64,000 nucleotides of DNA from Escherichia phage SholemSchwarzbard: the sequence record PP925840.1; one strand, given 5' to 3'. Made by a program: the position numbers and the translations under genes. How positions within the stretch are numbered: the first letter of the stretch is position 1; each line of letters opens with the position of its first letter. Shown piece after piece: positions 32,884-33,129 of this stretch. Below the pieces are notes generated by a model, which saw only the letters and a list, made by a program, of their open reading frames with translations, was not told where the DNA came from and made no database searches.

Positions 32884-32999
32884 TGCCTGCGCAAGCCCTC
32901 AAGGGGAACATAGGTTTTTGGATATTTAACGACCAGGATAACCATAAACCCGTCATCATACCACCAAGACTTACACAGATAACACTTTTCTGACGCATG

Positions 33000-33030
33000 A
33001 TAGTAACATTCAAGAGGTACACCGTAAAAC
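33000..33030 (-). promoter_or_regulatory. Early-type promoter candidate (GTTTTAC, 18 nt, TACTAT) in the rIII-30.9 gap
   Basis: Reverse complement of 33024-33030 is GTTTTAC and of 33000-33005 is TACTAT. Confidence 0.4.
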
Positions 33031-33129
33031 TGCCGGGGTCTTGAAACTATAATGATTCGCAAATCATTAATCAGACAGTTCGACGGCTCCTCGATTTAGC
33101 TCACACTAAGGCAGTGAATCTCCAATAAA

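Follow-up and report, generated by a model that had tools for sequence, protein, structure and literature searches.

A conserved array of predicted RNA modules between genes rIII and 30.9 of T4-type phages, including a relative of the ToxI antitoxin

Results

The region between rIII and 30.9

Escherichia phage SholemSchwarzbard (sequence record PP925840.1) is a T4-type phage of the genus Tequatrovirus, which over the region studied here is 99.9% identical with Shigella phage Sf25. We analysed a stretch of 64,000 nucleotides (nt) of its DNA, called the window below, and in it the unannotated gap between the genes rIII and 30.9, both of which lie on the minus strand. The product of 30.9 is a highly basic protein of 58 amino acids (aa), to which no function has been assigned. 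A preliminary description of the sequence had placed the gap at 32884-33129 (about 250 bp). The right edge was correct, the left edge was not: 32884 is an upstream in-frame ATG belonging to a mechanically called open reading frame (ORF), and with the start codon of 30.9 annotated in T4 the true gap extends over 32842-33129, 288 nt. The homologous T4 gap (130,541-130,784 of NC_000866, minus strand) is 244 nt long, and there is no annotation inside it in either T4 record (NC_000866 and AF158101). The gap sequence is present in 770 phage records. Our comparison covers about 50 different gap sequences, drawn from GenBank phages, IMG/VR and metagenomes; the metagenome scan contributed 13 loci only, and individual loci are referred to by L numbers. 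In our opinion it is firmly shown by this comparison that the gap specifies, on the gene strand, a conserved array of structured RNA modules that are independent of one another, two of them predicted pseudoknots.

The gap is neither a spacer nor a promoter region, and it is not a small gene either. It is under strong selective constraint, and it is among the most constrained stretches of the neighbourhood: in alignments of the window with Mosigvirus and Dhakavirus the identity is 91-94.5% in the gap, 84-89% in the whole rIII gene (66-74% at third codon positions) and 74-93% in 30.9. When a conserved reading frame with a start codon was sought among the relatives, none was found in the gap, in agreement with the earlier view that it contains no convincing gene. 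The hydrophobic frame of 48 codons mentioned there (47/55-codon; ATG at 32998, stop at 32855-32857, inside a 55-aa ORF starting with GTG) does exist, and it had rightly been distrusted for its lack of a ribosome-binding site (RBS). It can be ruled out because, in Mosig- and Dhakaviruses, it is broken by 1-nt indels located in the most conserved blocks (GACG-GG vs GACGAGG; CCTGGTCG vs CCT-GTCG; CCAAAAACC vs CC-AAAACC). Its ATG falls in a segment that is deleted from T4, in other genera the AUGAUG of a shorter version is either missing or followed by a stop after 1-22 codons, and the peptide has no PHROG match.

The RNA modules and their covariation

Along the gene strand the modules of the window follow each other in the order M1, A, V, B, C1, C2 and a hairpin involving the Shine-Dalgarno (SD) sequence of 30.9 (Table 1); between genera they are reordered, gained and lost. 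Structured RNA starts right after the stop codon of rIII. Many base pairs are G-U, several of them invariant, and as these are possible only in gene-strand RNA, they define the strand of the array. The preliminary description had noted that the segment could fold and had recommended covariance analysis across T4-like genomes. This analysis confirmed the folding, in a far more elaborate form than guessed, and gave strong results for modules A and B. Within the T4-type group most pairs are invariant, thus the support for V, C1, C2 and the extension of stem S2 of B comes mainly from comparisons between genera.

Table 1. Genes, RNA modules and transcription-related motifs of the rIII-30.9 region, listed along the gene strand; positions are those of the window
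Feature	Position	Strand	Description
rIII	33130-33378	minus
M1	33094-33125	minus	mini H-type pseudoknot, UUGGAGAUUCACUGCCUUAGUGUGAGCUAAAU
Module A	33006-33098	minus	93-nt irregular hairpin; helices P1 GAGG/CCUC, P2 GCCGU/ACGGU, P3 GAACUGUC/GGCAGUUU, P4 UAAUGAUU/AAUCAUUA
Promoter-like motif	33000-33030	minus	GTTTTAC (33030-33024)-18 nt-TACTAT (33005-33000); TG one base upstream of TACTAT
Module V	32959-33005	minus	hairpin; lower stem UACUAUCAUGC.../...CUUGGUGGUA, upper stem CAGA-AAAGUGUUA-UCUG (RNAalifold helix)
Module B	32903-32961	minus	H-type pseudoknot; conserved 5' flank GUAUGAUG
B, stem S1	32954-32949 / 32937-32931	minus	GACGGG/CCUGGUC
B, stem S2	32943-32940 / 32916-32913	minus	GGUU/AACC; hairpin loop and strand 14-15 nt downstream
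B, loop L3	32930-32917	minus	A-rich, GUUAAAUAUCCAAA
C1	32892-32906	minus	small hairpin CCC-CUUGA-GGG, then conserved CUUG
C2	32867-32890	minus	hairpin GCAGG-CAAUGCCAAUAAGU-CCUGC
SD hairpin	32847-32866	minus	AUUUUC-AUUUAAAA-GAGAAU; sequesters the SD sequence of 30.9 (GAG)
30.9, start codon	32841 (32841-32839)	minus	ATG, as annotated in T4
Intrinsic terminator	32640-32661	minus	9-bp GC-rich stem and T run; first downstream of rIII, after 30.9

The AT-rich inverted repeat AATGATT-CGCA-AATCATT (33051-33068), pointed out in the preliminary description, is exact and far above chance expectation. It is a real helix, P4, at the tip of the covarying module A. Among 14 distinct A sequences 98.3% of the cells are paired, compared with 28-64% when the partner strand is slid; 13 of the 27 pairs have changed on both sides, a value not reached by any of 500 shuffles. 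The covariance model of A (R2) finds a single copy in the window, at 116 bits. Compensatory changes occur in all four helices across three phage families, across which unpaired stretches of the module are fixed: GUCGAA, CUGAUUA, GUGUACC and UAUAGUUUUA, the last of these belonging to a conserved stretch that reads UAUAGUUU(U/C)A. The fixed unpaired nucleotides suggest contacts with a protein. In JM10 and L034 the inner half of A is missing and the outer helices are kept. A loose pattern scan for A in IMG/VR returned mostly chance matches; a true A was found in one of the 100 loci searched with R2.

The statistics of module B were obtained with a hand-curated alignment of 28 sequences, which had been fitted to the structure: 85.4% of the cells are paired, vs 26-54% when slid, and 10 of the 13 pairs show double changes (covariation score 0.466 vs 0.147 for shuffles, none of 500 reaching it). 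Stem S2 differs completely in sequence from genus to genus, with complementarity kept (CAAGGUU/AAUCUUG, UUGGUAGUU/AACUGCUAA, UUGUGAG/CUCACAA, GUUGGUU/AACCAAC and GAUGG/CCAUC); in the T4-type group only its GGUU/AACC core is unambiguous. The covariance model of B (R1) scores 69.9 bits and finds one copy in the window, and one in each related locus possessing the array.

The TACTAT motif and the start codon of the hydrophobic frame both lie in module V. T4 and JM10 have no V, and in L025 its upper stem is CAGC/GCUG, a compensatory change. C1 is present once in every B-bearing gap of the Tevenvirinae, before or after B, and either adjacent to it or separated from it by M1 and L (see below); its stem reads CCUC/GAGG in L050 and GCU/AGC in Yen9-01. 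The helix of C2 is invariant within the T4-type set. It is GCGGG/CCUGC in L047, and in CGG4-1 and L034 (Gelderlandvirus) the stem is GAACUGG/CCAGUUC with nearly the same loop. An alternative helix offered for C by RNAalifold, AGGGCUUG/UAAGUCCU, was rejected, as only GCAGG/CCUGC is compensated in CGG4-1 and L034. In the SD hairpin 90% of the cells are paired with one compensatory pair, and other genera have an analogous UCUCC...GGAAGA hairpin in the same place. The minimum free energy fold also contained a long-range pairing of UUAUUGG (33127-33121) with the loop of C2, which was discarded: it is not conserved in Mosigvirus and is absent where M1 is missing.

In Lutter-type phages a 140-nt module, L, takes the place of V. 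It is not present in the window. Module L (Lutter, L003:890-1030; also L020, L023, L032 and L043-L056) is a multi-helix RNA including a covarying hairpin with a GAAA (GNRA) tetraloop; compensatory changes are seen in 21 of its 41 predicted pairs. It occurs in 404 phage records (phages of Klebsiella, Escherichia, Enterobacter, Yersinia, Serratia and others), from Lutter-type Tequatroviruses and many further genera, and its place is always within the rIII-30.9 gap, either instead of V or at another point. No Rfam family matches it.

Search of the gap with the covariance models of Rfam 15 yielded no match at E <= 10, and neither did the longer gaps of the relatives; at permissive thresholds there were weak, unrelated matches only, outside the gap. 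As a control, a genuine ToxI array (see below) was searched and gave no ToxI match either, therefore Rfam 15 has no ToxI model, and the missing matches are no argument against antitoxin-like RNAs. ARAGORN detected no tRNA or tmRNA in the gaps. In the literature accessible to us we found no mention of the gap, of a T4 pseudoknot at this place or of a ToxI-like RNA in T4-like phages, and the part of the supplement of the T4 differential RNA sequencing (dRNA-seq) preprint that was accessible has no entry for the region.

Two other explanations for the modules could be discarded. A and B do not belong to a dispersed repeat family: they are single-copy in the window, and BLAST found no further copies. 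They are not read-through or frameshift signals for the rIII stop codon, either: pseudoknot B lies at anything from 4 to about 170 nt from that codon. A relationship of A or B to the T4 RNAs rnaC and rnaD was also considered, and no likeness was found. The latter (species 1 and 2 stable RNAs, encoded in the tRNA cluster) are likewise small structured phage RNAs without assigned function, and in Vequintavirinae A and B lie in one intergenic tract with tRNA genes and a homologue of rnaD; there is, however, no similarity in sequence or structure, and the array of T4-type phages is far from the tRNA cluster.

M1 and ToxI

ToxI is a 36-nt pseudoknot RNA, the natural inhibitor of ToxN in the type III toxin-antitoxin (abortive-infection) system ToxIN, and the cleavage motif of ToxN is AAAU (AA^AU). 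In Mosig-, Jiaoda- and Tegunavirus M1 has the consensus (C/A)GGUGAUU(U/C)GCUACC(UU)AAGUGC(A/G)GCUAGAAAAU, and is about 85-93% identical with the 36-nt ToxI unit. M1 of these sister genera resembles ToxI in having both short helices of the pseudoknot and the AGCUAGAAAAU tail with the AAAU motif. A 45-nt query comprising M1 of the Klebsiella phage KP01 matched 66 small mobilizable plasmids in 321 places with about 93.5% identity. These plasmids come from E. coli, Salmonella, Klebsiella, Yersinia, Pectobacterium and Serratia, and the matches, several per plasmid, form tandem arrays upstream of toxN. For example, the E. coli plasmid pNMEC-O75B has 5.6 tandem copies of the 36-nt AGGTGATTTGCTACCTTTAAGTGCAGCTAGAAATTC followed by a terminator and a ToxN/AbiQ toxin gene, and this is a ToxI antitoxin array. 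The local alignment scores with ToxI were 48 for M1 of NRG74, 48 for M1 of KP01 and 46 for M1 of Yen9-01.

In the alignment of M1 sequences, which like that of B was fitted by hand, the NGC/GCN helix common to ToxI and M1 is 100% paired, ToxI included, with two covarying pairs; CAC/GUG of the window alternates with CGC/GCG, UGC/GCA and AGC/GCU. We consider the homology of the M1 family with ToxI firmly shown by these comparisons, M1 being, as far as can be judged from them, of the ToxI lineage. In the window itself the homology rests on identical position and intermediate sequences and not on direct similarity: M1 there is best described as a degenerate member of the ToxI-like unit, and may be vestigial or retuned in this phage. 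An AAAU is present on its 3' side (33097-33094), and none between the rIII stop codon and M1. M1 differs from ToxI also in being embedded among unrelated structured modules. No gene of the toxN/abiQ family lies beside the array, the neighbours being rIII and 30.9; this is expected of a mimic, not of a toxin-antitoxin locus.

The best ToxI-like match of the whole window is elsewhere, at 21663-21680 on the plus strand, where TTTAAGTACAGCTAGAAA agrees with the ToxI unit, in its 3' half, at 17 of 18 positions (score 31; background 12.6 +/- 2.3). It is located within a plus-strand ORF.

Modules A and B in unrelated phages

Module A was detected at 96-100 bits in two Vequintavirinae (rV5-like phages), A5-4 and W70. 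A5-4 has module B, too (65.7 bits), and W70 lacks precisely B. In A5-4 B is followed by CAAGAGAAUUUA, a remnant of the ribosome-binding region of T4-type 30.9, an indication that a T4-like phage was the donor. In Kuravirus (phiEco32-like podoviruses) A scores 86-89 bits (L073:1199-1345, L074, L194) and lies directly behind the stop codon of the presumed terS, the gene preceding terL, and about 25 nt before an intrinsic terminator. A was found in 28 of 73 Kuravirus records; the others, including phiEco32, keep the terminator only. In our view these occurrences firmly show that A and B have been shared horizontally with unrelated coliphages, as far as horizontal transfer can be read from sequence comparison.

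Some further details of these loci can be recorded. In A5-4 (L071:1354-2028) and W70 (L072) A lies within an unannotated tract of about 620-675 nt, after which come a tRNA-like sequence not called by ARAGORN, a tRNA-Met and a clear rnaD homologue. L194 is a Kuravirus-like contig that has been binned into a 'Bacillota' metagenome-assembled genome. In one T4-like locus, L039:1280-1640 (= L097, IMG/VR contig 3300045988_074297), M1-A-B-C and the ATG of 30.9 are located inside the tRNA cluster, the ATG being fused to rIII codons ~55-82. A 13-bp direct repeat, TTTATTGGAGATT, stands at both ends of this insert, its right copy running into tRNA-Gln, and the C1 of the insert is mutated (CCCCTTGATGGATTG). 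L039 is either a recombinant phage or an assembly chimera.

Transcription of the region

There is no terminator between rIII and the array. As the first one follows 30.9, the array is most simply regarded as part of an rIII-30.9 transcript. A terminator after 30.9 is annotated also in Lutter and G4498. For rIII itself early, middle and late promoters have been reported (PMC9409239). The strong terminator, followed by an early-type promoter before 30.8, indicates that 30.9 ends a transcription unit. The latter promoter (32582-32610, minus strand; TTTACA-17-TAGTAT with TG) is a good one.

Discussion

The comparisons described above leave the function of the array to be interpreted. Tentatively, we favour the possibility that it is a co-transcribed, RNA-based counter-defence island consisting of decoys or antitoxin mimics. 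The modules would either be processed out of the rIII-30.9 mRNA or act within it, and would inhibit host RNA-binding toxins of abortive-infection systems, for which ToxN of ToxIN could serve as the paradigm; A and B would likewise have protein targets. We favour this reading because it would account jointly for the descent of M1 from ToxI, the architecture of B with its pseudoknot and AAAU-rich sequence, the manner in which modules are gained, lost and shuffled like cassettes, the presence/absence polymorphism shown by A and B in other families of phages, and the fixed unpaired nucleotides. A pseudoknot combined with an A-rich loop containing AAAU is the general architecture of type III antitoxins, and B shows both. 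The gain, loss and reordering of modules look like the accessory, mobile behaviour that is typical of counter-defence cargo. Phage TE escapes ToxIN by expanding a pseudo-ToxI RNA (PMC3475682), which is, like M1, a non-coding phage sequence within a transcribed region. T4-like phages are blocked by toxIN and carry the protein inhibitor TifA (PMC10853763).

Several observations weigh against this interpretation. One pseudoknot pair of M1, and most of its identity with ToxI, have been lost in the window: the GGU:ACC helix, kept in ToxI and in most of the phages, has an A.G mismatch in the window and in T4, and the alignment score of the window M1 with ToxI is 15, which is at the level of the window-wide background (12.6 +/- 2.3). 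Tandem repeats of M1 were not found, there is one unit per phage gap vs 5.6 in the true ToxI array, and in PHB12 and the Dhakavirus phages M1 is missing altogether. Wild-type phage TE with its 1.5 pseudo-ToxI repeats does not escape ToxIN (PMC3475682), and T4 can withstand E. coli toxIN only when tifA is amplified (PMC10853763). Among 72,556 plasmids and 5,426 E. coli genomes, BLAST searches with A, V, B, C and L found no relative, thus the search yielded no cognate toxin system for these modules. Finally, in Tevenvirinae the array is always located just upstream of 30.9 and has an RBS-hiding hairpin at its end, which would fit a cis-regulatory leader equally well.

A more specific form of the counter-defence interpretation can be envisaged, in which the locus is multivalent: M1, A and B (in relatives also L) would each inhibit or decoy a different host RNA-binding immune effector, M1 as a ToxI mimic, and A and B as new mobile RNA families (antitoxin-like or a ribozyme class) exchanged among Straboviridae, Vequintavirinae and Kuravirus. 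So far we regard this extended version as doubtful.

The main alternative is that the array acts in cis, as an intercistronic leader: a protein-binding translational operator and/or an mRNA-stability element controlling 30.9, with the final hairpin masking the SD sequence. It seems to us somewhat unlikely. In its favour, the array is in all Tevenvirinae sampled situated between the stop codon of rIII and the start codon of 30.9, without a terminator until after 30.9, and across genera the form of the SD-sequestering hairpin is kept. Gp30.9 is small and highly basic. In a T4-like contig (L035:1889-2533) 30.9 has been replaced by an ORF of 214 aa, judged by eye to be possibly RyR-domain-like, and the RNA array (C1-B-M1-hairpin) together with the first ~14 codons of 30.9 has been retained in front of it, an arrangement resembling an expression cassette. 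Ribosomal-protein leaders provide a further analogue. In T4 three autogenous translational repressors are already known, and a pseudoknot is used by one of them (PMC3014915).

A close parallel is the operator of T4 gene 32, a 5' pseudoknot with an A/U-rich tract. The array also has an H-type pseudoknot followed by an A/U-rich stretch with UUAAA, it belongs to the same phage family and it precedes a gene for a small protein resembling nucleic-acid-binding proteins. However, there is no sequence similarity between the two, the pseudoknot of the array is ~70 nt or more from the RBS, and array modules occur also away from 30.9 in other phages. The latter weakens the case for the leader: A and B are found without 30.9 before tRNA genes in Vequintavirinae, as is A after the presumed terS in Kuravirus. 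Conversely, in Krischvirus-like relatives (L036, L038, 1700-1900) a divergent homologue of 30.9 follows rIII after 9 nt without any structured array; in L037 there is a terminator directly after rIII, and neither 30.9 nor the array is present. The variation of module order and number between genera would be odd for a single operator fold, and the homology of M1 is to an antitoxin that acts in trans. The counter-defence and the leader interpretations are not mutually exclusive.

The preliminary description had called GTTTTAC-18-TACTAT early-promoter-like and had pointed to an unusually long leader of roughly 110-150 nt that could fold or encode a small RNA; on this model an early promoter would start a transcript with a long leader, or a short RNA. 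The motif is there, at the positions given, and the TG in front of TACTAT makes it an extended -10 such as is characteristic of T4 early promoters (bioRxiv 10.1101/2024.04.04.588121). As a promoter, we nevertheless consider it unlikely to function. It was not flagged in a scan with the sigma-70 consensus. In module A the '-35' GTTTTAC forms the 3' side of helices P3/P2 and covaries as such: in L047 it has changed to TTTTATGG and the 5' strand GCCGT to GCCAT, by which the pairing is preserved and the promoter-like hexamer is not. The '-10' TACTAT is deleted together with V in T4 and JM10, is 6 nt further away in Mosig- and Dhakaviruses and is replaced by the 140-nt insert in Lutter-type phages, and two hexamers at a spacing of 16-18 nt are not conserved among the relatives. 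The structured RNA begins upstream of the motif, and a transcript started there would be devoid of A and would begin inside V. No promoter is annotated here in either T4 record, or in Lutter, in which promoters are annotated elsewhere.

It is very unlikely, in our judgement, that the polycistronic RNA is cut by one or more of the modules acting as small self-cleaving ribozymes, B (with C1) being pistol-like or a permuted form of it and A a new class. In the pistol ribozyme the loop of the P1 hairpin is pseudoknotted to a downstream junction. B conforms to this, S1 and S2 both covary, and the pistol layout of a short hairpin, a loop pairing downstream and an A-rich linker of the UUAAAU type, beginning with (G)UUAAAU, is recognizable in it (PMC4604425). 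B is, moreover, phage-borne and intergenic, and small ribozymes are typically phage-associated, intergenic, mobile and mutually clustered (PMC4604425). In Tevenvirinae C1 always accompanies B, before or after it, as circular permutation would allow. On the other hand, no ribozyme model of Rfam, including that of pistol, matched the gap at E <= 10, even when the search space was only 159 or 171 nt. B has no consistent P2, P3 or 2-nt GU junction, possesses loops L1 and L2 unlike pistol, and beyond the pseudoknot strand, where pistol has conserved nucleotides, its sequence is not conserved between genera. A 3-bp CRA/UUG pairing proposed for it is uncompensated in L031, L067 and Yen9-01, and C1 is positionally unlinked to B and absent beside it in A5-4.

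An element functioning at the DNA level (replication origin, recombination hotspot, pac or homing site) is highly improbable. The location of the Kuravirus A between the presumed terS and terL would agree with such a role, and the indel junctions and the L039 rearrangement show that recombination is active here, but the G-U pairs, invariant as well as variable, can function only in gene-strand RNA, pseudoknots and the GNRA tetraloop of module L are features of RNA, and no known T4 origin is annotated in the region. Least probable of all is a small hydrophobic protein or another micro-ORF: the frame exists and short hypothetical coding sequences (CDSs) are annotated here in some GenBank records, but besides the arguments given above the substitutions are compensatory in helices and not concentrated at third codon positions.

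According to a review published in 2010, T4 had yielded no functionally characterised riboswitch or trans-acting regulatory RNA (PMC3014915). T4 is the reference phage, and the gap carries several covariation-supported RNA folds, among them two pseudoknots; the gap thus probably represents an unannotated RNA-based function in the best-studied phage family. Three questions become directly testable with our results: whether T-even phages counter abortive-infection toxins that target RNA, such as ToxN, with RNAs beside proteins such as TifA and Dmd, what is bound or catalysed by the mobile motifs A and B, and how gp30.9 is controlled.

For annotators there is reason to remove the spurious 'hypothetical protein' calls from the gap. 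Such short CDSs, probably artefacts, have been called over the RNA modules in L004:840-1137, L005:740-965 and L009:736-852. In several GenBank records (H3, H11, H16, H23) 30.9 is named '1,4-alpha-glucan branching enzyme', probably an annotation artefact as well. In Sf25 (L002:1018-1401), the nearest relative of the window, nearly the whole of 30.9 has undergone an in-frame tandem duplication, resulting in a protein of 127 aa vs 58, and this duplication is not present in the window.

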